A model generated the notes under the pieces. That model was given only the letters and a program-made list of their open reading frames with translations, was not told the DNA's origin and ran no database searches. A stretch of DNA of 62,332 bases, filler included. It is 9 parts of 9 records of this genome, joined end to end, with 100 filler letters (N's around TTAATTAATTAA, not from the genome) between each part and the next. Parts side by side here need not be neighbours in the genome. Positions count along the whole stretch, not along the records: positions 5,202 to 13,024 come from SRR31156797_102714; 8 more parts are not named here. The stretch is one strand, 5' to 3'. Shown in pieces: positions 834 through 27,926 of the stretch. Position numbers and translations under genes: made by a program. Numbering within the stretch: position 1 is the first letter of the stretch; the number at the start of each line of letters is the position of its first letter.

Positions 834-1259
834 TTATGCTTGTAACGCCGCCTGAACGAGGGCCGCGTCAAACTCGACAATCGCGTAGCCTGTTGAAATC
901 CATTGAGCCACGTAACCAATCAATGAATTGCTCGTTGATGTGAGGGTAAACGTATTGTCGTCGGAGGCATAAACCGCCGGACGATCATTTTCGGTAATTG
1001 CAAGGCTGTCGATGGGCAACTTGACATATCCCTTGCTTTTCACGCGAACATTGACATCACCGGCAGATCCACTTGAGTTGTCCGCCTTTTCCTCGGCAAA
1101 ACCAAGAAAAACGTCCCCTGCAACCAAAGGCCTGGCATAGCCGGACGCATTCTCTCCGACGGCAGCACCCTGGTAAATAATGTCGGACGCAATGACCGGA
1201 TATGCCAGCATGTCTCCGATACCGTAATCTCTTACCTCGTTGTCTGACAAAGTCGTCAT
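834..1259 (-). CDS. Capsid cement/head decoration-like protein
   Basis: 141 aa, IIYQGAAVG...FLGFAEEKADNS...VYASDDNTFT; lies directly upstream of the capsid gene. Confidence 0.7.
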   Translation of the reverse strand: MTTLSDNEVRDYGIGDMLAYPVIASDIIYQGAAVGENASGYARPLVAGDVFLGFAEEKADNSSGSAGDVNVRVKSKGYVKLPIDSLAITENDRPAVYASDDNTFTLTSTSNSLIGYVAQWISTGYAIVEFDAALVQAALQA

Positions 1260-1291
1260 CTGCTTTTCTCCTTTTCCATCATAGCGAAGGC

Positions 1292-1582
1292 TTATTCTTT
1301 TTTACTTCTGATTTTAAATTGCGGATCATTCTTGATGTATGCCCAATAGTTTTCGAATTCCAGAAACTCGTCTTGCAGATCCTGGCTTTTCTCGAACCTG
1401 GCCTTTGCCTTTTCTTCGGTCAACTGACCGCTGTCGGAACCAGAGGGTCCGTTGTTGTTCAACGGCTCATCGACCGGTGCCGGAGCATCGTCCGACAATG
1501 CCTCCCTTGCATCGTTTTGCGCTTTCAGGTTTGCGGCGTTGATCGCAATTGCGACATCACCGGATAAAGTTATATTTTTCAT
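1292..1582 (-). pseudogene. Internally deleted head maturation protease/scaffold (N-terminal ~10 aa fused in frame to scaffold C-terminus)
   Basis: Only 96 aa between portal and cement gene; C-terminus DDAPAPV...QDEFLEFENYWAY is scaffold-like; no protease core present. Confidence 0.6.
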
Positions 1583-2097
1583 TCCTTAATCTCCTGAAGA
1601 TCCTCTAGGTGCTCTTCCGTTGTGATCAAGCCGTCCTTACGTCGCCGCTTGATTTCCTTCACCCTCTGACGGTGATTTCGGTCCCACTCGCCGCCGCGTT
1701 CACGGGTGTTTTGTTCGGAAGTTTTCCAACCCCGGTCCTCTGCATATCCGTCAGCCTTGTTTTGTACGTCTTCACGGATATGCCCTCTTGGCTGCCCGAC
1801 CCAGTCGCCGGCGCAGTAGGCCGTCCGGATAGATGGATCGACAAAGAAGCCTGGAGCGGGTAAGATTCCGTTTGCGACGTCTTCGGCTATCAACAGCTCA
1901 TAAGCCGGCTGGCAAATGTTATCGACAAGCGCTGACCGCCGGGCCATAAAATATCGCCACGCTTCCAACAATGCGCCCTGGGCCGCTGTATACGACGATT
2001 GAAAATACTTCGTCATCACCTCGTGGGGGATGTTCAGCGCCATGCCGACTTGGGTATAAAAAGCGTCTGCGAAACCTGCATATTTATCGTTCCACAT
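1579..2097 (-). pseudogene. Lambda-family portal protein, C-terminal third only
   Basis: QVGMALNIPHEVMTKYFQSSYTAAQGALLEAWRYF...CQPAYE...W; about 170 aa versus roughly 500 expected; begins directly at the gpW end. Confidence 0.8.
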
Positions 2098-2299
2098 ATC
2101 GAACGCGAGATCCCGTGCGGCCGGCAAGCTCGCGCCTAGCTTTTGGCATGAGCCTTTCTTCTCTGTCGTATAAAGTGCCAAGGTCTGCCTTTGAATAGCT
2201 CTGACCGTCTGGCATCGAAAACGATTGTGTTCCGCTCTCAATCGCCTCAATAGCAGCTTGTACTGACTCGAGTTGTTCGACGTAGGTTTTAATAGCCAC
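2084..2299 (-). CDS. gpW-like head-tail joining protein
   Basis: 71 aa, EQLESVQAAIEAIESGTQSFS...YSKADLGTLYDRE; position between terminase and portal. Confidence 0.75.
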   Translation of the reverse strand: MAIKTYVEQLESVQAAIEAIESGTQSFSMPDGQSYSKADLGTLYDREERLMPKARRELAGRTGSRVRYVER

Positions 2300-2315
2300 T
2301 CAGCCCCTCCCCCCC

Positions 2316-2365
2316 AAAAAAACAAAAGCCCCTATGTGCGCACCTGTGATGGTGGACATAGGGGC
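2316..2365 (-). terminator. Intrinsic terminator-like hairpin just upstream of gpW
   Basis: 10-bp inverted repeat GCCCCTATGT (2328-2337)/ACATAGGGGC (2356-2365), followed on the minus strand by TTTTGTTTTTT. Confidence 0.55.
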
Positions 2366-2563
2366 CTAATTTCGCTCTCCGGTTTAACTCACGGAGTAAA
2401 ATTTTCCGACCTATGGTAAGAAAACTGTTTGTTATTTATGCAATTAATATGATCCTTGATTTTGTGCAAGCTTTTTCTATTGACAGGTTTTATATAACGC
2501 ATGCCTGCCATTTTTCCATACTTTTATATTGACAATTTTCAACAATTATAGTATGTAAAGTCC

Positions 2564-2845
2564 ATGAATTTCGAATGGGACGAAAACAAGAACCGTATCA
2601 ATATCGAAAAACACGGGCTTTCTTTTTATGATGCCCAGAAAGCCTTTTTGGATCCGAAGAGGATCATATTGGAAGACATGAAACATGGTGGGGATGAGCA
2701 ACGTTTTTTCTGTATCGGAAATGCAGGTGGAGGGATTGCCACGGTTCGCTTCACATATCGTAAAAACAAAATAAGAATTTTTGGCGCTGGTTATTGGAGA
2801 AAGGGGAAAAAATTATATGGACGACAAGGTAAAATACACGGATGA
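2564..2845 (+). CDS. brnT: BrnT family toxin
   Basis: MNFEWDENKNRINIEKHGLSF...EQRFFCIG...RIFGAG. Confidence 0.9.
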   Translation: MNFEWDENKNRINIEKHGLSFYDAQKAFLDPKRIILEDMKHGGDEQRFFCIGNAGGGIATVRFTYRKNKIRIFGAGYWRKGKKLYGRQGKIHG

Positions 2846-3062
2846 ACCGGAAGACGTTGACCTGGATAACGCCAGGATCATAAAAGACTTTTTGCCACCG
2901 CCGGGTGAACTGGTATTAAAGGAAAAAACCATTAAAATCACATTGTCGGTATCAGAAAAGAGTGTCGATTTTTTCAAGCATGAAGCGGGGAAACACGGTG
3001 TAAAATATCAGCAGATGATCAGAAGCCTAATAGATAAGTATGTTGACGCGCATTCGGCATAG
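2817..3062 (+). CDS. BrnA/CopG-like antitoxin
   Basis: Overlaps toxin 3' end; DFLPPPGEL...KITLSVS...VDFFK...YQQMIRSLIDKY ribbon-helix-helix-like C-terminus. Confidence 0.8.
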   Translation: MDDKVKYTDEPEDVDLDNARIIKDFLPPPGELVLKEKTIKITLSVSEKSVDFFKHEAGKHGVKYQQMIRSLIDKYVDAHSA

Positions 3063-3092
3063 GACTACTGAATCATTAGCCTTGGCCGAATG

Positions 3093-3323
3093 TCAGAGTC
3101 CACGACTCCGAACACGCCGTTTTTTGGAAAGCTGCACGGTCTCGGACCGATGAATCTTTACCCCGCCAACTATTCCCCCCTGGTTGAACTGAATCTTGAA
3201 AGACATCTCGCCAGTCCACTTATCTGAGGATACAATTGCAAGCTTTGTTGCGAAACTTTCCACGGCACATCTCTGCGTCTCGTCAAGATTCGACAGCAAT
3301 TTTTCGATGTCATCAAAGCCCAC
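3093..3323 (-). CDS. Small phage hypothetical protein
   Basis: 76 aa, GTG start overlapping the terminase 3' end; WTGEMSFKIQFNQGGI core. Confidence 0.6.
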   Translation of the reverse strand: MGFDDIEKLLSNLDETQRCAVESFATKLAIVSSDKWTGEMSFKIQFNQGGIVGGVKIHRSETVQLSKKRRVRSRGL

Positions 3324-5101
3324 TGTTTCTCACCCTCCGTCCAGGTCGTTGTCTCACAGGATTCACACCATCCGCAATCGCAGTGGCAAGCCGCTCCAAC
3401 CTCAGTTTCAATTTCCCAAATTCGGGCTTTACATATTCGAGGGCACCCAACGCATAAGCCCTGCAGTCAAGGGGTTTGTTGGGACCTTTTTTAACCCATT
3501 GATGGCCGATGACAACGCCTTTTCTCCGTTTGATCTTTTTTTCCTCGTTGGTAAGGTGACGAAAATGGATCTCATCGTAATGATCCGGAAAATGGCACGC
3601 CCCTTCTTCTTTTTGTCTCCCTGCCAGGTTCCCTTGTTGCATAGCATGCCTGTGTTGACACCTTTTGTGGCGTAGATGTTCCGCCGGCGCCTGGGGCCGG
3701 TGAACCGGTATACCTCACTCGCCAGGTATCCGGAATCGATAAACGTACAGGAAATGGGCATGTTCAGTCCATCCTCACGCGTGAATTTCTGCTTTAATTC
3801 CTTGTCCAGATGATCCCATACAGCCGGCTTTTCCGCGTTGCCGTGAATAACGATATACCCCAAAGACCAGGTCTCATTTTCAATCCCATGGCCAACGATT
3901 TCAAGTTCAATCCTCGGATTCGCGCCGCCTTGGACGTCGCCACCTGCAGTAATGACAAGAACTCCTATGGGAATGGTTCCCTCTGCAAGATAATCCTCTC
4001 CACGCTGGCCAAGGTCCGAATGGTTGACCGTTTCTCCTTTTTCCTCGAAGGTTTCTCCCAATAGCGTATTGATAACCGCTTTCAGCGTTGTAATGTTGCC
4101 GCTTTTTGCATCTTTGTTGGCCGCCAGCCACTTTGAAACAAAATAGGACCAAGGCCTTAAATAGCTGTAGGCTGCCCAGATCCGGGCGCCGATACTCCGG
4201 GGCTTTGCAATGGGGTTGCCTTCCGGGTCAATAAAGCGGTCGGTGTCGTCATCATAATAATAGCCGTCCAGGGTTTGCCAGCACCCCGCCCTATCCATTG
4301 CCGGATATTGCCGGTAAAAGATCTCGCATTGGTTGTGCTTGCAGATATACCGGACGGTTTCAGGTTCGCCGTCATCCCAATCAAATTGTGAGAACTCCAA
4401 GCGTTGGCTTTCGCCGCAAAATGGGCAACGGACAAACCGATACAGGATCATATCGGAGTTATCCACGGCCGATTCGATAAGGGACGCGCCCTTGGTCTTT
4501 GGTGTGGATCCACGAATTGACTTAGGGAAAGGGGCCTGGTCAAGGCGGCCGTCGCCAAGCTCAAAGCACGAGCCCTCACCGTCAATGTCCAGGTCAAAGG
4601 CGTCGGTTTCGTCATAAACGGCCACGTCCTTGGTCATGCGCCGGAAGTTCCGGGCCGATTTACCACCCTTGATGTCCAGGGTTGCGCCGTCGAAGACTTT
4701 CTTTTCGACCGTGTTGTATTTGGACTTTGCACCCACTTTGCACTTTAGCCGCCGGCCGAGGACCGGTACATCCCGAAGGATGGTTTCAACTTCGTCGGTG
4801 GTGAAATCTTTGGCATCACCATCTGTCGGCTGCCAGACGGCAACGTTTCGGTTTTTCTGTTCGATCTGGCAGCCGACCGCGGCCAAAAGGCATTTCGTGT
4901 ATCCCACACGCCGCGACTTTTGCCAGTTGAACTCTTCAATGTCATCAGACGTCATCCAATTGAGAGGGCCAATCTGATAGGGGTACGATTTCCACCGCCC
5001 CTCTGTCCCGGATGACTCTGGCGAAAGGTAAAAATACTCATTCGCCCATTGTGCCCCGATCAGGGGAATGCGAACACGAAAGGGTTTAACGCCTATGTGG
5101 A
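3313..5101 (-). pseudogene. Lambda gpA-type terminase large subunit, 5'-truncated by contig end, frameshifted near 3597
   Basis: QKSRRVGYTK Walker A, YDETD, RGSTPK, CPFCG, FIDSGY in ORF 3429..4955 (frame open to 5101); C-terminal CHFP...NKPLDCRAYALGA lies in another frame (3313..3642). Confidence 0.85.
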
Positions 5102-5201
5102 NNNNNNNNNNNNNNNNNNNNNNNNNNNNNNNNNNNNNNNNNNNNTTAATTAATTAANNNNNNNNNNNNNNNNNNNNNNNNNNNNNNNNNNNNNNNNNNN
5201 N
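5102..5201. other. Artificial contig linker (also 13025-13124, 20734-20833, 26226-26325, 31952-32051, 43677-43776, 49756-49855, 56911-57010)
   Basis: N runs flanking TTAATTAATTAA (stops in all six frames); genes are cut at each linker. Confidence 0.99.
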
Positions 5202-5255
5202 TATACGCTGTTACGAAATTATTAACCGTATCGACTCCCAAGGAAAAGAATTACA

Positions 5256-5333
5256 GTGAACACACTCAACGCAGGCAACTTTTACTTTTATTTTAGGTAT
5301 TATTTTAATACCGGTCTGCCTGTGGTGCACTGA
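5256..5333 (+). CDS. Phe/Tyr-rich attenuator leader peptide MNTLNAGNFYFYFRYYFNTGLPVVH
   Basis: GTG start, AAGGA about 11 nt upstream; 4 Phe + 4 Tyr within 9 consecutive codons; lies upstream of the aro/phe/tyr operon. Confidence 0.85.
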   Translation: MNTLNAGNFYFYFRYYFNTGLPVVH

Positions 5334-5403
5334 AAGAGACGATACTAAGCTAAAAAGTGAAAAAGCCGCAGCAGACCAAAGGTCGCTGCGGCTTTTGTGT
5401 TTT
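5270..5403 (+). promoter_or_regulatory. Ribosome-mediated transcription attenuator (protector/antiterminator/terminator)
   Basis: Terminator AAAAGCCGCAGC-A-GACC-AAA-GGTC-GCTGCGGCTTTT-GTGTTTT (5361-5403); 5313-5326 can pair with 5365-5377; 5270-5277 can pair with 5317-5324. Confidence 0.8.
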
Positions 5404-5405
5404 GT

Positions 5406-5446
5406 AAGGGGCTGCGGGGACGTAAAAATCTGCAGCCCTTTTTCCT
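5406..5446 (+). terminator. Second terminator-like hairpin in the aro leader
   Basis: GGGCTGCGG...CTGCAGCCC followed by TTTTTCCTTT, ending just before the AAGGAG RBS (5451-5456). Confidence 0.55.
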
Positions 5447-5462
5447 TTCCAAGGAGAATAAA

Positions 5463-6266
5463 ATGTCAGTCATTGGAAAGAGAATTCGCCTTGAGCGTAT
5501 TATCAACAGAGAGACCGGCAAAACAATTATCGTTCCCATGGATCACGGTACTACCATTGGTCCGGTCAAGGGACTCCTTGACATGAAGGACGCAGTGAGG
5601 AAAGTGGCCCTTGGCGGGGCAAACGCCATTGTGGAGCACAAGGGGCTGGTAGGGGAGGGCCTTCGGGGCCAGGGACCGGATATCGGACTCATTGTCCACC
5701 TTTCAGCTTCCACCTCCCTGTCCACCCGGCCCAATGCCAAAACCCTGGTCTGCACCGTTGAAGAGGCGATAAAACTCGGGGCGGACGCCGTCTCCATCCA
5801 CGTGAATCTCGGCAATGGGGATGAGCCACAGATGCTCAACGATTTCGGGAAAATCAGCCGGGTTGCCGGGGAATGGGGCATGCCGCTCCTGGTGATGATT
5901 TACGTAAGGGGGGAAAAGGTGCCCAATGAGTATGACACCGACGCCATCAAGCATGCCGCCAGGGTTGGCGGCGAAATGGGGGCCGATATTGTCAAGGTCG
6001 CCTACCCCGGTACCCCTGAGGGTTTCCGGGAAGTGGTTGAGGGATGTCCCGTACCCGTGGTTATCGCAGGCGGCGCAAAGATGGATTCGGACAGGGAGAT
6101 TCTCACCATGGTCAGGGAGAGCATCGATGCCGGTGGCGCGGGCATTTCCATTGGGCGAAATGTGTTCCAGCATGATAATCCAAGGAAAATGGTGGAAGCC
6201 ATGGGGGCGATCATCCATGACAACGCATCCATTGACACCGCCCTGAGTATTTTGGGCGATCACTGA
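5463..6266 (+). CDS. 2-amino-3,7-dideoxy-D-threo-hept-6-ulosonate (ADH) synthase, class I aldolase family (aroA')
   Basis: [40 protein letters not shown]; adjacent to DHQ synthase II; RBS AAGGAG. Confidence 0.85.
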
Positions 6267-6294
6267 TCGCCGATGGCTGAATTAGGAGACTGAT

Positions 6295-7287
6295 ATGCGA
6301 AAAATATGGATACGGATTGAGCCTTGGGACAAGGAAATGGTGACCACGGCCCTTGAGTGCGGCGCCTTTGGCGTAATGGTGCCGGAAGGCCATGGGGCTG
6401 AGGTGAGACAGCTTGGTAAAATCGTCATCATGGCCCCTGACGGGGATCTTGTACCGGGGACCGATGTCACGGAGATCCGGATAGAGAGCCAGGAGGACGA
6501 GGAGGCGGTGCTTGCGGCAGCCCACACCGGCACGGTGATCCTGGATACAAGCGACTGGAAGATCATTCCCCTGGAGAACCTCATTGCCAGGGGCGCAAGC
6601 GTGATCTTCAAGGTGGAAACATCCGCCGAGGCAAAGACGGCGTTTCAGATCCTGGAACAGGGGGTTGACCAGATCGTTTTTCAACCGAAAACCCCTGTTG
6701 AGTTGAAGAATTTTTTCTCCGACCTGTCCCTTGAAGGGGAAAGCACTCTTCTGGAAACGGCCGAGATCGTCAGCATCACCCAAGCCGGAATGGGGGACAG
6801 GGTCTGCATCGATACCTGCACCATGATGACCCCCGGACAGGGCATCCTTGCCGGAAACAGCAGCAAGGCGTTGTTCCTGGTCCACAGCGAGAGCCTGGAA
6901 AATCCCTATGTGGCCACCCGGCCGTTCCGGGTGAATGCCGGGCCGGTTCACGCCTATACCCGGGTGCCAGGGGGCAGGACCCGCTACCTGTCCGAACTCG
7001 AAGCCGGGGATCCCATTCTGATCACCGATGCAAACGGCCGGTCCTTTGAAGCGGTCACCGGGCGTCTCAAGATAGAGAAACGTCCCCTGATGCTGGTCAA
7101 GGCACGGGCCCAGGAACAGGAGATTTCCCTCCTGGTGCAGAATGCCGAGACCATCCGCCTGACAACGCCAAAGGGAGAAGCCATTTCCGTGGTGGACCTC
7201 AAGCCGGGGGATACCGTGCTGGTCGCCCTTGAAACCAATGCACGCCATTTCGGCCATAGTATAGAGGAGAGCATTTTAGAACAATGA
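6295..7287 (+). CDS. 3-dehydroquinate synthase II (aroB')
   Basis: DWKIIPLENLIA, GDRVCIDTC, RPFRVNAGPVHAY, QNAETIRL, RHFG. Confidence 0.92.
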   Translation: MRKIWIRIEPWDKEMVTTALECGAFGVMVPEGHGAEVRQLGKIVIMAPDGDLVPGTDVTEIRIESQEDEEAVLAAAHTGTVILDTSDWKIIPLENLIARGASVIFKVETSAEAKTAFQILEQGVDQIVFQPKTPVELKNFFSDLSLEGESTLLETAEIVSITQAGMGDRVCIDTCTMMTPGQGILAGNSSKALFLVHSESLENPYVATRPFRVNAGPVHAYTRVPGGRTRYLSELEAGDPILITDANGRSFEAVTGRLKIEKRPLMLVKARAQEQEISLLVQNAETIRLTTPKGEAISVVDLKPGDTVLVALETNARHFGHSIEESILEQ

Positions 7288-8387
7288 CGAACATGAAAGA
7301 CAACCAACAGCCGGAACAACGGCTTGCCGGGTTCAGGGCCGAGATCGACGACATCGACCGGGAAATCGTCACCCTCATCAACAAGCGGCTCCTCGTGGGC
7401 AAGAAGATCGGAGAGATCAAGGATGAGATCGGGTCGGAAGTCCTTGATCAGCAACGGGAAAACAAGGTCCTGGAACGGCTCGCCCGGATAAACCAGGGGC
7501 CTGTCGAGGATGATGTGCTTCGCTACATCTACAGCGTCATCATGACGGCATCCAGGCAGATCCAGCGCGCTAACCGGATCTCCTATCTCGGACCCGAAGC
7601 CAGCTACAGTCATATTGCCTCCCTGAATCACTTCAGGCATTCGGGACAATTCGTAAACGAGGTAAGCCTCAGGGAAGTGTTTCAACAGGTGGAGAAAAAA
7701 GAGAGCAATTACGGGGTGGTTCCCATTGAAAATTCCATCGAGGGTGCAGTGACCCACACCCTGGACCTTTTCTATGAATTCGACCTCACCATCGTCGCCG
7801 AGCACTACGAACATATTTCCCACGACCTGCTTTCGGCCTCCGGGGACATCGATGCCATCAAAACGGTTTATTCCCACCCCCAGGCCCTTGCCCAGTGCAG
7901 GAACTGGCTTCGGAAAAAACTTCCCGGGGCGGAGATCGTGGAGACCACCTCCACCTCCCAGGCCGCCCGGATCGCAGCCGGTGAAAACCATGCCGGGGCC
8001 ATCGCAAGTTCCAGGGCCGCCCACATCTACAATCTCCAGGTGGTGGAGTCCAAGATCGAAGATCTCTCGGGGAACATCACCCGGTTCCTGGTGATCGGCA
8101 GGGACAAGGTCGAAAAAACAGGCAAGGACAAGACTTCTGTCATGTTCGCCACCTCCCATGTGCCGGGCGCTTTGTTCAAGGTGCTGGAGCCGGTGAACCG
8201 GGCGGGTCTCAACCTTGTCAAGCTGGAATCCAGGCCCACCCGCCACCAGAACTGGAGCTACTATTTCTTCATGGACATCGAAGGCCACATCGAGGACAAA
8301 ATCGTACATGACACCATCGAGGAAATGAAGGCCAACAGCCTTTACCTCAAGCTCCTGGGATCTTATCCCGTGTTCAGTGAACTCTAA
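7284..8387 (+). CDS. pheA: Chorismate mutase/prephenate dehydratase (P-protein)
   Basis: RAEIDDID CM domain; YLGPEASYS, VPIENSIEG, YSHPQAL, TRFLVIG, LESRP. Confidence 0.93.
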   Translation: MTNMKDNQQPEQRLAGFRAEIDDIDREIVTLINKRLLVGKKIGEIKDEIGSEVLDQQRENKVLERLARINQGPVEDDVLRYIYSVIMTASRQIQRANRISYLGPEASYSHIASLNHFRHSGQFVNEVSLREVFQQVEKKESNYGVVPIENSIEGAVTHTLDLFYEFDLTIVAEHYEHISHDLLSASGDIDAIKTVYSHPQALAQCRNWLRKKLPGAEIVETTSTSQAARIAAGENHAGAIASSRAAHIYNLQVVESKIEDLSGNITRFLVIGRDKVEKTGKDKTSVMFATSHVPGALFKVLEPVNRAGLNLVKLESRPTRHQNWSYYFFMDIEGHIEDKIVHDTIEEMKANSLYLKLLGSYPVFSEL

Positions 8388-8405
8388 CCAAGGTTGTGAA
8401 GGTCA

Positions 8406-9221
8406 ATGTTGAATTCAGATACCAGGCTCTACGCACTTTTCGGCGATCCCGTCTCCCACTCCCTGGGGCCGGTGATGCACAATGCCGCATTCGGGGAGAG
8501 GAAGATCAATGCCGTGTACCTGGCGTTCCGGGTGGCGGGGATCGAACAGGCCGTTGACGCCATGCGAAACCTGAAAATCGCCGGCGCCTCCGTCACCATT
8601 CCCCATAAGGAAACGGTGATTCCCTTCCTTGACGAAGTGGATGAACTGGCCCGTGAAATGGGGGCAGTGAACACCATTGTAAACCGTGAAGGGAAACTTG
8701 TCGGATACAACACCGACGCCAGGGGGGCCGTGGATCCACTTGAAAGGGTATGCAACCTTGCCGGAAAGCGGGTGGTGATCATCGGCGCCGGGGGGGCGGC
8801 CAGGGCCGTTGCCTTTGGTGTGAAACAAAAGGGGGCGGCGCTTTTCCTGGTCAACCGGTCTGAAGAGCGGGGCAGGGAGCTTGCCCGGGAGATGGGGGCG
8901 ACCTTTATATATAAGGACGAACTTGAAGGGGTTGATCCCGAAATCATCATCAATGCAACATCCGTTGGCATGGCACCCGGGATCGATGATATTCCCCTGG
9001 ACCCTGGATTTCTCACCAACTCCATGATAGTGATGGATATCGTCTACACCCCGGTGAAAACCAGATTAATTCGGGCTGCAACGGAAAAAGGGTGTGTTGT
9101 CATTGATGGACTGTCCATGTTCGTCAACCAGGGGGCGGCACAGTTTGAGCTGTTCACTGGTACAGAGGCGCCAACGGATACCATGAAAAAATCGTTAATA
9201 AAGGTAATTGAAAATAGATGA
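8406..9221 (+). CDS. aroE: Shikimate dehydrogenase
   Basis: HSLGPVMHN, VTIPHK, GAVNT, YNTD, GAGGAARA, NATSVGM. Confidence 0.93.
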   Translation: MLNSDTRLYALFGDPVSHSLGPVMHNAAFGERKINAVYLAFRVAGIEQAVDAMRNLKIAGASVTIPHKETVIPFLDEVDELAREMGAVNTIVNREGKLVGYNTDARGAVDPLERVCNLAGKRVVIIGAGGAARAVAFGVKQKGAALFLVNRSEERGRELAREMGATFIYKDELEGVDPEIIINATSVGMAPGIDDIPLDPGFLTNSMIVMDIVYTPVKTRLIRAATEKGCVVIDGLSMFVNQGAAQFELFTGTEAPTDTMKKSLIKVIENR

Positions 9222-10477
9222 AACAGATAAAGACACGAAATATTCAACCCTGCTCCGTCACGGTCCCGGGATCGAAAAGCGTTTCCCACAGGATGGTGAT
9301 CTGTGCGGCCCTGGCCAACGGTCAATCCGTTGTGGACAATCTCTTGAAGAGTGAAGATATTGAACTGACCATGGCGGCCCTGGGCCACATGGGGGCTTCC
9401 ATCACTCCAAACGGTGAAAATTCGGTTACCATCACCGGGTTTGACGGCAGGCCCGGTCCCTTTTCAGATCCCATCTACCTTGGGAATTCAGGCACGTCCA
9501 TGCGGCTTCTTGCCGGCATTGCGGCCCTGGGGGAGTCCCCCTATATTCTCACCGGGGACGAGCGAATGACCCAGCGGCCCATGGATGCGCTTCTTGCCTG
9601 CCTCAGAATGGCGGATATCCATGCCGAGTCCGTCAATGGCAACGGCTGCCCCCCGGTTTCCATCAGGGGCGGAAGCAGGCGAGGAGGCCTTGTGACCCTG
9701 GACTGCTCCACCAGCAGCCAGTACCTTTCAGCCATGCTGATGATGGGGGCGGTCCTGAAGAACGGACTGCATATCACCCTGTCCGGTCCCCCGGTGTCGG
9801 CGCCTTATATCGATCTCACCCTGGACATCATGAAGCGCTTCCAGGTGACGGCCCATCGGCTGACCGAGACCCAGTTCCGGGTACCGGGGGGCCAGGCATA
9901 TGTTCCCGGGCATTTTGTCGTGGAACCGGATCTCTCCAATGCCAGCTACTTCTGGGCTGCCGGCGCTGTTTCGGGAAGCCCGGTAAAGGTGACGGGTATC
10001 AGCAGGAACTCCCTCCAGGGGGATCTCGAGTTCGTGGATATCCTCGGGCGCATGGGATGTGAGGTAACTGAGGATGAAGGGGGCATCGCTGTCTCCGGCG
10101 GAGCGCTGACGGCCATCGATGTGGATATGGGACGCTGTCCGGACGTGGTTCCGACCCTGGCCGTGGTGGCGGCCTTTGCAAGGGGCACCACCCGGGTCAC
10201 CAACATCGCCCATTTAAGGGAAAAGGAGTGCGACCGCATCGAGGCGGTGGTCTCCCAGCTCCGGAAGATGGGGATCGAGGCCGACCAGGGGGATGACTGG
10301 CTCACGGTTACGGGCGGTGTGCCTCACGGCGCGTCCATCGAGACATTTAACGACCACAGGATCGCCATGGCCTTTGGCGTGGCCGGCCTGAAGGTAGAGA
10401 ATGTCCTGATTGAAAATGAATCCTGTGTTGGAAAATCCTTTCCAACCTTTTGGGAGGTCTTTGAAACCCTGATATGA
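9218..10477 (+). CDS. aroA: 3-phosphoshikimate 1-carboxyvinyltransferase (EPSP synthase)
   Basis: PGSKSVSHR, GNSGTSMR, SSQYLSA, LREKECDRI, DHRIAMAF, KSFPTF. Confidence 0.95.
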   Translation: MKQIKTRNIQPCSVTVPGSKSVSHRMVICAALANGQSVVDNLLKSEDIELTMAALGHMGASITPNGENSVTITGFDGRPGPFSDPIYLGNSGTSMRLLAGIAALGESPYILTGDERMTQRPMDALLACLRMADIHAESVNGNGCPPVSIRGGSRRGGLVTLDCSTSSQYLSAMLMMGAVLKNGLHITLSGPPVSAPYIDLTLDIMKRFQVTAHRLTETQFRVPGGQAYVPGHFVVEPDLSNASYFWAAGAVSGSPVKVTGISRNSLQGDLEFVDILGRMGCEVTEDEGGIAVSGGALTAIDVDMGRCPDVVPTLAVVAAFARGTTRVTNIAHLREKECDRIEAVVSQLRKMGIEADQGDDWLTVTGGVPHGASIETFNDHRIAMAFGVAGLKVENVLIENESCVGKSFPTFWEVFETLI

Positions 10478-10983
10478 ACGTGATCTTAATAGGATACCGC
10501 TGCACGGGCAAGAGCGAGACCGGCAGAATCCTGGCCGATTCCCTTTCCCTGCCCTTTGTGGATACGGATGATCTCATTGAAAAAACCATGAAGGGGTCCG
10601 TTGCCGATATCGTGGAAAGCAAGGGATGGGAGAGTTTCAGAAAAATTGAGAGCCAGATTTTGAAAGGGCTGTTGAAAACCGACGGCCTGGTGATTGCCAC
10701 GGGCGGCGGCATCGTTCTTGACGAGAAAAACATCGAGGCCATGAAGGCGGGAGGAAACGTGGTGTGGCTCACAGCAGAAATCGACACCATATTGGACAGG
10801 ATGGCAAAGGACCCGAACACCGCCGGGTTAAGGCCCGCCCTGACCAACCATGGCCTTGAGGATGAAGTGAAGGAAACCATGGCCATGCGAAAGCCCCTCT
10901 ATGAAAAGGCTGCCCATATGACGATCGATACCTCAAACCAGGATGCAGCCGAAGTGGCGGCCATTATAAAAAGGAAACTATGA
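10474..10983 (+). CDS. aroK: Shikimate kinase
   Basis: GYRCTGKS, DTD, FRKIE, ATGGG, RP, R.PLY. Confidence 0.9.
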   Translation: MNVILIGYRCTGKSETGRILADSLSLPFVDTDDLIEKTMKGSVADIVESKGWESFRKIESQILKGLLKTDGLVIATGGGIVLDEKNIEAMKAGGNVVWLTAEIDTILDRMAKDPNTAGLRPALTNHGLEDEVKETMAMRKPLYEKAAHMTIDTSNQDAAEVAAIIKRKL

Positions 10984-10986
10984 ACT

Positions 10987-12045
10987 ATGGCAGGTAGCAG
11001 TTTTGGAACGTGTTTCAGGATAACCACCTGGGGAGAGTCCCATGGCAAGGCGATCGGTGTGGTGGTTGACGGGTGTCCTCCCGGAATTCCCCTGGATGAG
11101 GCCATGCTTCAGGCGGCCCTGGACAAACGAAAACCCGGGCAGACCGCCGCAAGCACGGCAAGAAAGGAACCGGATGTTCCGGTGATTCTCTCCGGGGTGT
11201 TTGAGGGCGTCACCACGGGTACGCCCATCATGATCGAGATACAAAACAAGGACGCCGATTCCAGGGCCTATTCGGACATTGCCAGGTTGTTCCGGCCGGG
11301 CCACGGGGATATCACCTATCTTGCCAAGTACGGTGTCCGTGACTGGCGGGGCGGCGGCAGGGCATCGGCCCGGGAGACGGCAGCACGGGTCGCGGCAGGC
11401 GCCGTTGCCCAGGCCGTACTGGATAGCTGCGGCATCGAGATCAGGACCTGCACCCTGGAACTCGGTGGAGTGAAGGCCCGGAAGATCGACTGGAACGAGA
11501 CGGAGAACAACCGGTTCCAGTGCCCTGACAGGGACGTTGTGGCAGAAATGGAAAACAGGGTCAAGGACGTGAAAAAGCAGGGGGATTCCGTGGGCGGCGT
11601 GGTTGAGATCCGGGCGGTCAACGTGCCAGCGGGTCTTGGGGAACCGGTGTTTGACAAACTGGATGCCCGCCTTGCAGGCGCCCTCATGGGAATCGGGGCC
11701 GTCAAGGCGGTGGAGATCGGAGCCGGGTGTGAAGCCGCCCGCATGACAGGATCGGAAAACAATGACCAGATCCTGGAAGACCGGTTTGAGACAAACAACA
11801 GCGGCGGCATTCTTGCCGGTATTTCCAACGGAGATGAGATCATCGCCAGGGTGCACGTAAAGCCCATCCCCTCCATTACAAAGGAACAGAAAACCGTTGA
11901 CGAAAATGGTAAGCAGACAACCCTGTCGACAAAGGGGCGTCACGATGTATCAGCCATTCCCAGAATTAACCCGGTATGCAAGGCCATGGTGGCCATTGTG
12001 CTTGCAGACCTTTTATTACGGCAGAAAGCGGTGTCATGCAGTTAA
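10987..12045 (+). CDS. aroC: Chorismate synthase
   Basis: WGESHG, RPGHGD, GGGRASARETAARVAAG, GGILAGISNG, GRHD. Confidence 0.95.
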   Translation: MAGSSFGTCFRITTWGESHGKAIGVVVDGCPPGIPLDEAMLQAALDKRKPGQTAASTARKEPDVPVILSGVFEGVTTGTPIMIEIQNKDADSRAYSDIARLFRPGHGDITYLAKYGVRDWRGGGRASARETAARVAAGAVAQAVLDSCGIEIRTCTLELGGVKARKIDWNETENNRFQCPDRDVVAEMENRVKDVKKQGDSVGGVVEIRAVNVPAGLGEPVFDKLDARLAGALMGIGAVKAVEIGAGCEAARMTGSENNDQILEDRFETNNSGGILAGISNGDEIIARVHVKPIPSITKEQKTVDENGKQTTLSTKGRHDVSAIPRINPVCKAMVAIVLADLLLRQKAVSCS

Positions 12046-12866
12046 AGACCATAGGAATTATCGGCGGAAAAGGAAGTATGGGGAGATGGTTCGAGGTGTT
12101 TTTTAAAGACCTTGGCCATGGGGTTATGATATCGGATCTGAACACCCCCCTGACAAACGAGGATCTGGCCCTGTCCTGCGATGTCGTGATATTGAGCACG
12201 TCAAAGGATCAGGCCGTGAAGATTGCGGCCGAGGTTGGCCCCCTCATGGGGGAAGAACAGATCTTCATGGATTTTTGCTCCCAGAAGGAGGAGATCGTTT
12301 CGGCCATGACGGAACACTCCAGGGCGGAAGTCGTTGGAACCCATCCAATGTTCGGACCGTTTACCAAAGGGATCGAGGGGCAGAACATCATCCTCTGCCC
12401 CGGCCGGGGGGCGAGGGGGTTTGCCTGGGCAAGCGAAGTTTTCGAATCTGCCGGCGCAACGGTTACGGAGCTTGACGCCCGGGACCACGATCGCCACATG
12501 GCTCTTGTCCAGGGGCTTACCCATCTTGTGACCATCACCATGGCAAGGACCCTTCAGAAGATGGATCTCCATCCCAAGGATGTATTTTCCATCTCAACGC
12601 CCATTTTTCGGCTTAATTCAGATATCATGGGCAGGCTGTTTGCCCAGGACCCGGATCTATACACCACCCTGGTGGGGGAAAACAAGTATGTGAAGGAGGT
12701 GCTGGATCTCTATTGCGAGTCCCTGGAGGAGGGAACCCAAGCCCTTCTCGAGGGGGACCATGGGCAGGGGGTCGATTTCCTTCGGGATATCGGCCGGTTC
12801 GTTGGCAGCTACAAGGAGACGGCCCTTGAACGAAGCAACCGGTTTCTCAATATTATTTTTGAATAA
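12036..12866 (+). CDS. tyrA: Prephenate dehydrogenase
   Basis: GIIGGKGSMG, DFCSQK, GTHPMFGP, HDRHMALVQGLTH. Confidence 0.88.
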   Translation: MQLKTIGIIGGKGSMGRWFEVFFKDLGHGVMISDLNTPLTNEDLALSCDVVILSTSKDQAVKIAAEVGPLMGEEQIFMDFCSQKEEIVSAMTEHSRAEVVGTHPMFGPFTKGIEGQNIILCPGRGARGFAWASEVFESAGATVTELDARDHDRHMALVQGLTHLVTITMARTLQKMDLHPKDVFSISTPIFRLNSDIMGRLFAQDPDLYTTLVGENKYVKEVLDLYCESLEEGTQALLEGDHGQGVDFLRDIGRFVGSYKETALERSNRFLNIIFE

Positions 12867-12919
12867 GGTTATGATTTCAGTTAGGTATGGATTCGTGTTG
12901 TTTATATGAGAAAAAAGGC

Positions 12920-13018
12920 TTGACAAAAGAAAATGATTCAGGTAGGTTGTTCTGGTCTTCGCGAAACACCTCTTGTTCTCGCGGACAATCTTTATTTTTG
13001 TTTTGATCTTTGAAAACT
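12920..13018 (+). promoter_or_regulatory. Sigma70 promoter and boxA, probable rRNA operon leader
   Basis: TTGACA (12920)-17 nt-TAGGTT (12943); TGATCTTTGAAAACT (13004-13018); contig breaks 6 nt later. Confidence 0.65.
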
Positions 13019-13124
13019 GGTTAGNNNNNNNNNNNNNNNNNNNNNNNNNNNNNNNNNNNNNNNNNNNNTTAATTAATTAANNNNNNNNNNNNNNNNNNNN
13101 NNNNNNNNNNNNNNNNNNNNNNNN

Positions 13125-26375: not shown

Positions 26376-27926
26376 ATGAAAAATCAGGCAACTCAACTCA
26401 CGCATCAAGCTCTAATAAATTACTACCGGCTGTTAACGGCAGGCTTTATTTTTATAGTCGCATTAGGTTTCAGCGCCTCCGGCGAGGCGACCCCTGTTAA
26501 ACCAAGGAGTAAAGTGCCTGACGCCCTCATAGAACCAGGGCCGGGCAAGGACCGGTTCATACTTGTCGTGGAAAAGGCCGAGCAGAAATTGCACTTATAC
26601 GAATTTAAGAAAGGCAATTACTATCTGCATAACATAATGGACTGCTCCACAGGGGAAAACACCGGCGACAAAATGGTGGAAGGGGATAAAAAGACTCCGG
26701 AAGGTTTTTACATTTTTAATAAAAAAGCCGTTGAATCCGAATTGGCGCCTATTTACGGCGTATTGGCCTATCCGATGGATTACCCCAATTATTGGGACAA
26801 GGTTTCAAATCGAGCCGGCAGCGGCATTTGGATGCATGGGACGAATAAAAAGCTTGCACCCCTGGATTCGAATGGTTGCGTCGAATTGAAGAACATCGAC
26901 ATCATGAATCTGGAAGGGCTTATAGACCTGTACAGGACCCCGATCGTGGTCTATCATAAAATCGCCTACAACAGCACCGAGGAAATGAACAGGGAAGCGG
27001 CCGAGTTGAAATCTTTCATCGAGGCGTGGAGAAGAGCCTGGGAAACAAAGGATTTTAAAGCCTACAAGGCCAAATACGCCAAGGACTTTGTTAGTAATGA
27101 CGGTAAAAGCTACTCCGCCTGGATGGACCATAAAAGCAATCTGAATCATAAATATGAAAAAATTGAAGTCGATATAGCCGATTTGAAAATATATCGGCAC
27201 CGGGATGTAATTGTCGCTTCTTTCGAGCAATACTACAAGGCCAATAATCATTTCACCAGCGATGGGGTAAAAAGGCTTTATATCAGCGATAACGGCGGCT
27301 CATACAGGATTGCGGCCGAAGAATGGCATCCTTTTCCGCCCAGGTCTCCCAGGAAGCTTTTATCCGCGGAAGTCAAGGCCCGGGTAATGGCCGAGGAAAA
27401 AACTGCCCCGGTTGTGGTTGCTTCGGTGAAAAAAACGCCGGCGGTTCAACAGCAAAAACAGCCGGCGCCGGACAAGCCTGTCGCCGCGTCTCCGCCCAAA
27501 CCCGAGAAAAAAGTCGCCAAGAAAGAGGCCAAGCCGGCCGCCCCGAAAATCAACAAGCAGTTGGCTGCAGAATCCGACAATGTCAGGAAGATAGTAAAGC
27601 AGTGGCTTAACGCCTGGCGGGGTATGGACGTTGACAACTACCTGGTTCATTATCATCCGGAGTTCAAATACAAAGGCATGGATTTGAACGGTTACAGGGA
27701 GTACAAGCAGGGGCTTGCCGAAAAATACAATTCAATAACCATAAAAGTTGAAAAGATGGATATCCAGGTTCAGGGAACGAGAGCCATGGTGACATTCGTG
27801 CAGGATTATCGTTCCGATAAATACAGGGATTACGGCCTCAAAACCCTGGTCTTGAAAAAGCACAAAAAAGACTGGCGGATAAAAGAGGAATCCTGGAAAG
27901 ACATGAGCGCGGGAGCAAAACCATAG
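26376..27926 (+). CDS. YkuD L,D-transpeptidase-family protein with two NTF2-like domains (Csd6/Pgp2-like)
   Basis: GDKKTPEG, YPN, GIWMHG...SNGC; two W..AW...YxxxY...WxIxxE repeats separated by a Pro/Lys/Ala linker. Confidence 0.82.
   Translation: MKNQATQLTHQALINYYRLLTAGFIFIVALGFSASGEATPVKPRSKVPDALIEPGPGKDRFILVVEKAEQKLHLYEFKKGNYYLHNIMDCSTGENTGDKMVEGDKKTPEGFYIFNKKAVESELAPIYGVLAYPMDYPNYWDKVSNRAGSGIWMHGTNKKLAPLDSNGCVELKNIDIMNLEGLIDLYRTPIVVYHKIAYNSTEEMNREAAELKSFIEAWRRAWETKDFKAYKAKYAKDFVSNDGKSYSAWMDHKSNLNHKYEKIEVDIADLKIYRHRDVIVASFEQYYKANNHFTSDGVKRLYISDNGGSYRIAAEEWHPFPPRSPRKLLSAEVKARVMAEEKTAPVVVASVKKTPAVQQQKQPAPDKPVAASPPKPEKKVAKKEAKPAAPKINKQLAAESDNVRKIVKQWLNAWRGMDVDNYLVHYHPEFKYKGMDLNGYREYKQGLAEKYNSITIKVEKMDIQVQGTRAMVTFVQDYRSDKYRDYGLKTLVLKKHKKDWRIKEESWKDMSAGAKP

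Follow-up and report, generated by a model that had tools for sequence, protein, structure and literature searches.

A probable six-segment leader-peptide attenuator with two terminators in series ahead of an ADH-synthase-led aromatic operon

The window, i.e. the whole stretch of DNA that was analyzed, is 62,332 nt long and consists of nine parts joined by N spacers; all coordinates below are those of the window. The locus described here lies on contig SRR31156797_102714 (positions 5,202–13,024), which begins at 5202 after the N spacer at 5102–5201, and the leader is 54 nt from the contig start. Eight genes that abut or overlap follow the leader (Table 1); a DHQ dehydratase and an aminotransferase are not among them. 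The eight genes are presumably spanned by one transcript. In an earlier note on this DNA, this operon, from ADH synthase to tyrA, had been placed under attenuation, and the proposal is well supported by the conservation, the covariation and the matching of codons to target genes presented here.

Table 1. Features of the leader region and of the downstream operon.
Feature	Coordinates	Strand	Remarks
Probable sigma-70 -10 box	5204..5209	+	Predicted from sequence; -35 box lost at contig start
Shine-Dalgarno of leader ORF	5240..5244	+	AAGGA, 11 nt upstream of GTG
Leader peptide ORF	5256..5333	+	25 aa, GTG start, TGA stop; 77 homologous leaders have 22-33 codons
Segment 1	5270..5280	+	5' arm of protector (probable pause) hairpin 1:2
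Regulatory codon run F-Y-F-Y-F-R-Y-Y-F	5280..5306	+	Codons 9-17; Arg where most relatives have Trp
Small hairpin within 1:2 loop	5296..5312	+	Overlaps codon run
Segment 2	5313..5332	+	Partner is segment 1 or 3; 5329-5332 with 5356-5359
Segment 3	5356..5377	+	Partner is 2 (antiterminator) or 4 (terminator 1); inner partner 5356-5359
Segment 4 and first U tail (5393-5403)	5381..5403	+	3' arm of terminator 1, or 5' arm of relay 4:5
Segment 5	5406..5421	+	Partner is 4 (relay, anti-terminator 2) or 6 (terminator 2)
Segment 6 and second U tail (5439-5448)	5429..5448	+	3' arm of terminator 2
Shine-Dalgarno of first gene	5451..5456	+	
ADH synthase (aroA')	5463..6266	+	TIGR01949, 346.6 bits, over cut-off
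3-Dehydroquinate synthase II (aroB')	6295..7287	+	NF002627, over cut-off
Chorismate mutase/prephenate dehydratase (pheA)	7284..8387	+	NF008865, over cut-off; N-terminal chorismate mutase matches
Shikimate dehydrogenase (aroE)	8406..9221	+	TIGR00507, over cut-off
EPSP synthase (aroA)	9218..10477	+	TIGR01356, over cut-off
Shikimate kinase (aroK/L)	10474..10983	+	NF002988, 160.8 bits vs. cut-off of 161
Chorismate synthase (aroC)	10987..12045	+	TIGR00033, over cut-off
Prephenate dehydrogenase (tyrA)	12036..12866	+	TyrA models, E ~1e-51 to 1e-44, all below cut-offs

The preceding contig, separated from the leader by the spacer, is phage-like at 834–4955: a lambda gpA-type terminase large subunit is encoded at 3429–4955, portal- and capsid-like ORFs were recognized by eye, and a small two-gene toxin-antitoxin-like pair (also by eye) occupies 2564–3062. 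Elsewhere in the window, a weak match to the two-hairpin covariance model described below (26655–26769, minus strand, E 0.006) is probably an ordinary terminator.

The leader ORF had been read in the earlier note as 25 codons with eight of nine consecutive codons for Phe or Tyr. That reading holds, and all four Phe codons are UUU. Out of 5000 dinucleotide shuffles of the 5' region, not one gave seven or eight F/Y codons in nine open codons (shuffle maximum, 6), and across all six frames of the 62-kb window at least seven F/Y in nine codons occur at the leader alone. An artifact of the contig edge was considered and ruled out, because an independent MAG (L001, the closest) carries an identical leader ORF. 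The sequence of L001 is the same as that of the window from 5204–5209 to the leader, and a -35-like hexamer is located 17 nt further upstream; a strict promoter pattern was matched ahead of only 10 of 77 leaders. The notion that the AGG codon for Arg is a rare-codon brake was rejected, AGG being common in the operon (46 uses).

Both pairings that the earlier note had drawn ahead of the terminator are present, namely a protector (5270–5277 with 5317–5324; fold z-score, -2.8) and an antiterminator (5313–5326 with 5365–5377; fold z-score, -3.6). The terminator at 5361–5396 was confirmed as a hairpin (fold z-score, -4.5), whereas its U-rich tail is imperfect, having 6 U in 8. The note had likened the whole to E. 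coli pheL, trpL and thrL, with four segments and one terminator; the kind of attenuation stands, but the count does not, as six segments and two terminators are present. The elements absent from that description are an inner extension of the antiterminator (5329–5332 with 5356–5359), a second hairpin at 5406–5441 (-20.7 kcal/mol, z-score -3.4) with a U tail at 5439–5448, and a helix between segments 4 and 5 (5382–5421, -20.9 kcal/mol), hereafter the relay helix or 4:5. The second hairpin follows the first terminator and precedes the ribosome-binding site of the first gene. Segments 3 and 5 are alike, as are 4 and 6, and segment 4 is therefore able to pair with either 3 or 5. Neither full hairpin was called in a simple consensus promoter/terminator scan, which gave 8 matches vs. 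6.6 in shuffles.

RNA-derived contigs were taken from four metatranscriptome runs of one study (word shares 0.08–0.19), a kind of material that is unable to show ends, strand or level. The contigs cover the leader, and those from runs X2, X3 and X4 continue across the two hairpins as far as the ADH gene, with DNA carry-over being possible. One contig starts at 5216, although contigs cannot define transcript starts. Another, from run X1, ends at 5403, but beside strain indels at 5404–5408; it extends 5 nt beyond 5202.

For comparison with related loci, the closest relative genome (G002, 96% ADH-synthase identity) was used in place of the window's own genome, and the best 80 ADH-synthase loci, mostly labeled Desulfobacterales, were taken from GTDB genomes. 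An F/Y-rich upstream ORF in orthologous leaders, for which the earlier note had proposed a search, was found at both scales. Among these best 80 loci, 78 have an aromatic-rich leader, typically ca. 180 nt upstream; the 78 include a leader of a different sequence type (L077) and one with a short run (L056), and the two that were not counted are L073, which is truncated but has both hairpins, and L070, which has none. In a sample of the phylum of D. magnum, ADH synthase is present in 71 of 251 genomes, and 48 of 70 phylum-wide loci have at least six F/Y/W in nine codons within 500 nt; the aromatic run is missing at the other 22. Among control upstream regions (300 nt), 16 of 648 have such a run.

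Several of these loci depart from the common arrangement. L077 (8501–8714), on a contig labeled Candidatus Falkowbacteria, has an ADH synthase that nests among Desulfobacterales sequences, a different F/W/Y leader and no adjacent aro genes, the result of either transfer or misbinning. Second ADH-synthase paralogues occur in Desulfobotulus and Desulfoluna (L082, L083, L164), each with its own single-terminator, Phe-rich leader; no other aro gene follows the paralogue in L164. In L058, L060, L080 and L004, insertions of 150–300 nt separate the first gene from the second terminator, that of L080 being a short tandem repeat.

The features expected of a translated leader are retained. Start codons among 77 leaders are ATG (61), GTG (12) and TTG (4), an SD-like 4-mer precedes 56 of the 77, and indels within the codon run are multiples of three. 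These observations bear on a reading in which the leader is untranslated, a protein or ligand recognizing its conserved RNA and the codon run being a by-product of a U-rich binding site. The run is indeed very U-rich. The size of the indels, the retention of start codons with an SD-like site, and the change of the run to Trp ahead of trpE and to Tyr ahead of tyrS (see below) all count against this reading, and we give it hardly any credence.

After the removal of six duplicate loci, a set of 129 leaders was compiled for codon content. Their runs contain F in 129 cases, Y in 128 and W in 91, with residue totals of 532 Y, 389 F and 106 W. Codon totals in the leaders are 259 TTT vs. 27 TTC and 303 TAT vs. 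53 TAC; UUU and UAU are strongly preferred there, but not in the operon's own genes. The description of a dual Phe/Tyr leader in the earlier note is accordingly right for the window's lineage, but the family at large is Phe/Tyr/Trp. The clade of the window has AGG at the position where most relatives have TGG, and an NGG codon is kept in 16 of 20 leaders that lack Trp; pairing in the small hairpin at 5296–5312 may be the reason that the GG of the Trp codon persists after Trp is lost.

Tyr is presumably sensed separately from Phe. Alternatively, the mechanism could be the same but the leader effectively a sensor of Phe only, with Tyr codons serving mainly to keep the region U-rich and unstructured. 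The Phe-Tyr-Phe leader of C. glutamicum aroR, which according to the available text of PMC11802643 reacts to Phe but not to Tyr limitation, is a point in favor of that alternative, as is the dominance of U-ending codons in the leaders. On the other side, Tyr is the commonest residue of the runs and is present in 128 of the 129, a Tyr-only leader with the same module stands ahead of tyrS, and Y10, Y12 and Y15 of the window fall within the modeled sensing region. A Phe-only sensor was consequently deemed improbable, and separate sensing of Tyr is retained in what follows.

Covariation was evaluated in alignment A1, which holds 76 leaders (L077, L034, L056, L070 and L073 were left out); two-sided changes were compared with shuffle controls that ignore the kinship of the leaders. 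Counted in this way, the helices of the stop state (1:2, 3:4 and 5:6) are 90.6% paired with 141 two-sided changes vs. 43.6 in shuffles, and those of the read-through state (2:3 with its inner extension, and 4:5) are 88.6% paired with 57 vs. 18.5. The protector, the antiterminator and the terminator, whose covariation the earlier note had suggested as a check, all covary, as do 5:6 and 4:5. All seven core pairs of 1:2 have two-sided changes (86.9% paired), 2:3 alone has 34 such changes vs. 10.0 in shuffles, and no helix of the family is better kept than 5:6 (96.0% paired, two-sided changes in 7 of 10 pairs). The small hairpin at 5296–5312 is 81.9% paired with weak covariation. For 4:5 alone, 93.6% of positions are paired, compared to 26–47% in slid controls, and 23 two-sided changes were found vs. 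8.5; two of five measures for this helix failed to beat shuffles (206/500 and 131/500). One of its column pairs (186–232) is AU in 44 leaders, GC in 13 and GU in 9.

The hairpins of the 129 leaders were assigned to states by one rule, which left 15 leaders unplaced. Two automated hairpin classifiers were set aside; they often took 4:5 as the strongest hairpin. Both hairpins are U-tailed in 71 leaders (tandem), the second alone in 16 (relay), and in 27 the first alone is tailed or there is a single hairpin. Among cultured carriers, Desulfonema magnum belongs to the tandem state, and Desulfoluna spongiiphila and Desulforapulum autotrophicum belong to the relay state. On a tree of 155 ADH synthases, constructed with a quick method and with 18 loci labeled by eye, the state with a tail on the second hairpin only requires four changes, three of which are forced by well-supported branches. 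In such leaders only hairpin 2 can act, and they thus provide the strongest argument for a functional 4:5. Cognate 4:5 duplexes also exceed all shuffled pairings (-15.7 vs. -14.3 kcal/mol, n = 87), and in a second set the values are -10.45 for cognate vs. -8.69 kcal/mol for shuffled (n = 38). In L041, 4:5 is weak (-6.7).

Hairpin 2 may have arisen as a copy of hairpin 1, in which case the complementarity of 4:5 would be partly automatic. That duplication by itself would yield this complementarity, that 27 of the 129 leaders have one hairpin only, and that in the window 5:6 is favored over 4:5 at equilibrium are all points for a simpler scheme: a plain four-segment attenuator with an independent hairpin 2, be it a leaky constitutive terminator, a stabilizing or processing hairpin, or a neutral duplicate. 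This scheme is nonetheless considered unlikely, given that the 16 leaders with a U tail on hairpin 2 only have at least three separate origins, that coordinated changes preserve 4:5, which also persists in a family whose stem letters differ, and that an unregulated terminator 15 nt ahead of the first gene would limit the induced level.

The U tails also speak to a switch at the level of translation or of Rho, in which the hairpins would gate the ribosome-binding site rather than the polymerase. The SD lies ca. 10 nt past the end of hairpin 2 and could pair with the pyrimidine tail of that hairpin, and the first U tail is imperfect, all of which such a switch would accommodate. However, 114 of the 129 leaders keep U tails behind one or both hairpins, and in L004, L058, L060 and L080 the first gene is 200–400 nt past the leader stop, too distant for masking of the SD; a switch of this kind is therefore very improbable.

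The preferred reading is a six-segment, ribosome-mediated attenuator with two intrinsic terminators in series, which as a complete model we regard as probable. Of its parts, leader-peptide attenuation is very probable, and the relay to the second terminator is likely. Leader translation, ribosome stalling, the kinetic order of folding and termination at each site would be its steps. When charged Phe- and Tyr-tRNA are plentiful, the ribosome would reach the TGA and cover segment 2, and 3:4 (terminator 1) would form; a polymerase that passes terminator 1 would then meet 5:6 (terminator 2), segment 4 being occupied. When Phe- or Tyr-tRNA is scarce, the ribosome would stall in the codon run and block segment 1, leaving segment 2 free, such that 2:3 could form ahead of the synthesis of segment 4. 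The freed segment 4 would in turn take segment 5 ahead of the synthesis of segment 6. With both terminators pre-empted, the eight-gene aro operon would be transcribed. In sum, 1:2 + 3:4 + 5:6 would be the stop state and 2:3 + 4:5 the read-through state. Blocking 5361–5396 alone would leave the conserved terminator at 5406–5448 intact, and helix 4:5 is thus needed as a relay.

Folding calculations were performed with an assumed ribosome footprint of 10 nt beyond the A-site codon. Under that assumption, a stall anywhere from F9 to Y15 gives 2:3 a probability of 0.95 once segment 3 has been made; the value is 0.87 at Y16, a marginal 0.62 at F17, and no more than 0.01 at T19 or later. The geometry proposed in the earlier note, in which a stall on the F/Y run frees segment 2 (5313–5326) to act against the terminator, thereby holds in the folding model with this footprint. 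With 2:3 held, the probability of 4:5 in the window is 1.0 until segment 6 is made, and 80 of the 87 leaders with two hairpins behave likewise (all 16 relay leaders and 64 of the 71 tandem ones). Once segment 6 is present, 4:5 still prevails in only 39 of the 87 (36 of the 71 tandem leaders, 3 of the 16 relay leaders), and in the window it loses (0.05 vs. 0.78). At equilibrium of the full RNA the terminators win, 3:4 + 5:6 having -53.4, 2:3 + 5:6 having -50.8 and 2:3 + 4:5 having -45.5 kcal/mol. Because 4:5 is mostly lost once segment 6 is made, the relay must be kinetic. Classical attenuators, too, depend on folding order. In naked RNA, 2:3 beats 1:2 once segment 3 appears (0.90 vs. 0.05).

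The occurrence of the module elsewhere was surveyed with a covariance model built on the two hairpins, which was applied to five named relatives and to 41 genomes of the class. The model was trained on two-hairpin sequences, and its matches lean towards the 4:5 layout. Of the 41 class genomes, 33 were matched. The 68 matches in total comprise three in D. magnum, five reverse-strand duplicates and 60 distinct sites in 40 genomes, some of the 60 repeating genomes already covered. These sites precede genes for ADH synthase (22), trpE (17), DAHP synthases (13), paaK (5), and trpD, pheA and aroA (one each); 13 of the targets were identified by HMM and the others by N-terminal likeness, with L213 and L257 doubtful. 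A strict pattern search gave only four sites in five genomes, and one of these (L169) is probably due to chance.

The codon run follows the target gene. Trp runs are found ahead of 15 of the 17 trpE genes, trpE is likewise Trp-led in D. magnum and D. spongiiphila, and Phe-rich leaders lie ahead of DAHP synthase and pheA. In the closest relative, a Tyr-only leader with the two-terminator module (L183, G002:C29:63860-63942) precedes tyrS, and a second F/Y/W leader, in which Trp is kept, precedes a canonical DAHP synthase (L170:1384-1556); both routes of entry into the pathway seem to be attenuated in that genome. Other than by ribosome sensing, such agreement between codon run and target gene is difficult to account for. 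At three Phe-led sites with different stem letters, 4:5 is kept (-14.9, -14.9 and -13.8), vs. -7.4 to -8.4 for 4:5 with non-cognate partners. That one leader disarms two serial terminators by a strand-swap relay, as a portable, codon-reprogrammable module across the aromatic regulon of Desulfobacteria, is a generalization toward which we lean slightly. If it is true, the off-state leak rates of the two terminators would multiply, and the codons would be allotted by target: F/Y/W to ADH and DAHP synthases, W to trpE and trpD, Y to tyrS, and F to pheA-type genes. An F/Y run ahead of a paaK-ACT-ABC operon would then mark aryl-acid salvage for Phe/Tyr synthesis.

Further sites deserve mention in their own right. 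The double-hairpin module with Phe/Tyr leaders is found ahead of paaK-led operons at L249, L251, L252, L254 and L261 (operons in L263–L265), which encode a phenylacetate-CoA ligase, an ACT-domain protein and a branched-chain-type ABC transporter; this composition suggests that aryl acids are taken up and activated to make Phe and Tyr, not to be degraded. Class I-beta DAHP synthases are Trp-led at L225, L242, L243, L247, L250, L256 and L258 and Phe-led at L230, L257 and L259, and the two groups may be isoenzymes. In D. magnum, an IS110 transposase splits a Trp leader having two terminators from the DAHP synthase and DHQ synthase genes (L179/L231, G001:C1:3088082-3091300). Leader ORFs rich in Ile, Leu and Val, with a single terminator, lie ahead of ilvD in two Desulfobacterales genomes (L182, L190).

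The understanding of attenuation is unchanged by these results, the mechanism being classical. They add an uncatalogued, phylum-wide leader family that would control archaeal-type (ADH) entry into aromatic biosynthesis in sulfate reducers, in which two terminators under one sensor occur in three natural states (single, tandem and relay only). These states permit a direct test of whether a his-type extra hairpin cuts basal read-through. In addition, the codon run tells which amino acid the downstream gene serves, an aid in annotating DAHP synthase isoenzymes (Trp-led vs. Phe-led) and paaK operons in organisms that are mostly uncultured.

No Rfam family reached its gathering threshold in the window; there were sub-threshold look-alikes only. 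The best of these is the leader of E. coli pheL-pheA (Phe_leader, RF01859; 22.5 bits, E 0.12, compared to a gathering threshold of 55). The two share a Phe-rich leader ORF, a protector, an antiterminator and a terminator. Unlike pheL-pheA, the present leader has a mixed Phe/Tyr/(Trp) run, a second terminator, and the whole common pathway as its target. The leader works like the his attenuator, which alternates between A:B, C:D, E:F and B:C, D:E. The same arrangement is found here, with three hairpins making up the stop state and the two alternative helices the read-through state. Rfam's His_leader had no match in the window; the leader is his-type in layout and not a member of that family. As described in the available text of PMC1183508, Salmonella and E. 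coli hisL has, like the present leader, an additional hairpin that separates the pause hairpin from the terminator, for which a role in lowering basal read-through was proposed. The present family differs from hisL in that the middle hairpin is more often than not followed by a U tail (71/129), making two terminators, and in that aromatic amino acids are sensed.

In a body of full-text literature with few subscription papers, neither this leader peptide nor the two-terminator layout was found described. The work of Lopatovskaya et al. (2010) reportedly covers delta-proteobacteria and may predict some of these leaders. The portions of PMC2965389, PMC9413887 and PMC5314783 that were available contain nothing on the leader family of the window. 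Two regulatory stops are also present in Salmonella mgtCBR (PMC3641672, in part), where two separate ORFs are used, and in the rimP leader, for which the available portion of PMC2965389 mentions no amino-acid leader peptide; unlike both, the present leader has a single ORF that would drive both stops through a strand swap.

Nearer in gene content, a possible pheL ahead of Desulfobacterium autotrophicum pheA was listed by Gurvich et al., whose criterion, in the part of PMC3082878 available, was at least five Phe codons within 200 nt of pheA. The ADH leader of D. autotrophicum has two Phe in its run, and the pheL of that listing is thus probably another locus. The aroR leader of C. glutamicum, ahead of aroF (Neshat et al. 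2014, as summarized in PMC11802643), is a Phe-Tyr-Phe leader that responds to Phe only, as far as the available text of that review goes; like that of the window, it places Phe and Tyr codons ahead of the first enzyme of aromatic biosynthesis, but it has three such codons vs. eight or nine, precedes a canonical DAHP synthase rather than an ADH synthase, and belongs to another phylum. Song et al. (2005) tabulated a putative attenuator of the D. vulgaris aroA'-aroB' supraoperon (PMC1173090, Table 7, from Merino's database), which has the first genes and the phylum in common with the window; the accessible text of that paper contains no occurrence of “leader”, nor a sensing mechanism or a second terminator, unlike the account given here. 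The D. vulgaris gene order recurs at L162 behind a single-terminator F/Y/W leader, and judged through L162 the attenuator tabulated in that source is probably a homologue.

The earlier note had left open whether such a leader was new for this lineage. In the sources as far as they were available, the double-terminator variant seems little described, but precedents for the rest exist (PMC1173090; C. glutamicum aroR, PMC11802643). The family is a variant of the classical mechanism that was partly anticipated in print, both the principle and mixed aromatic leaders being already known.
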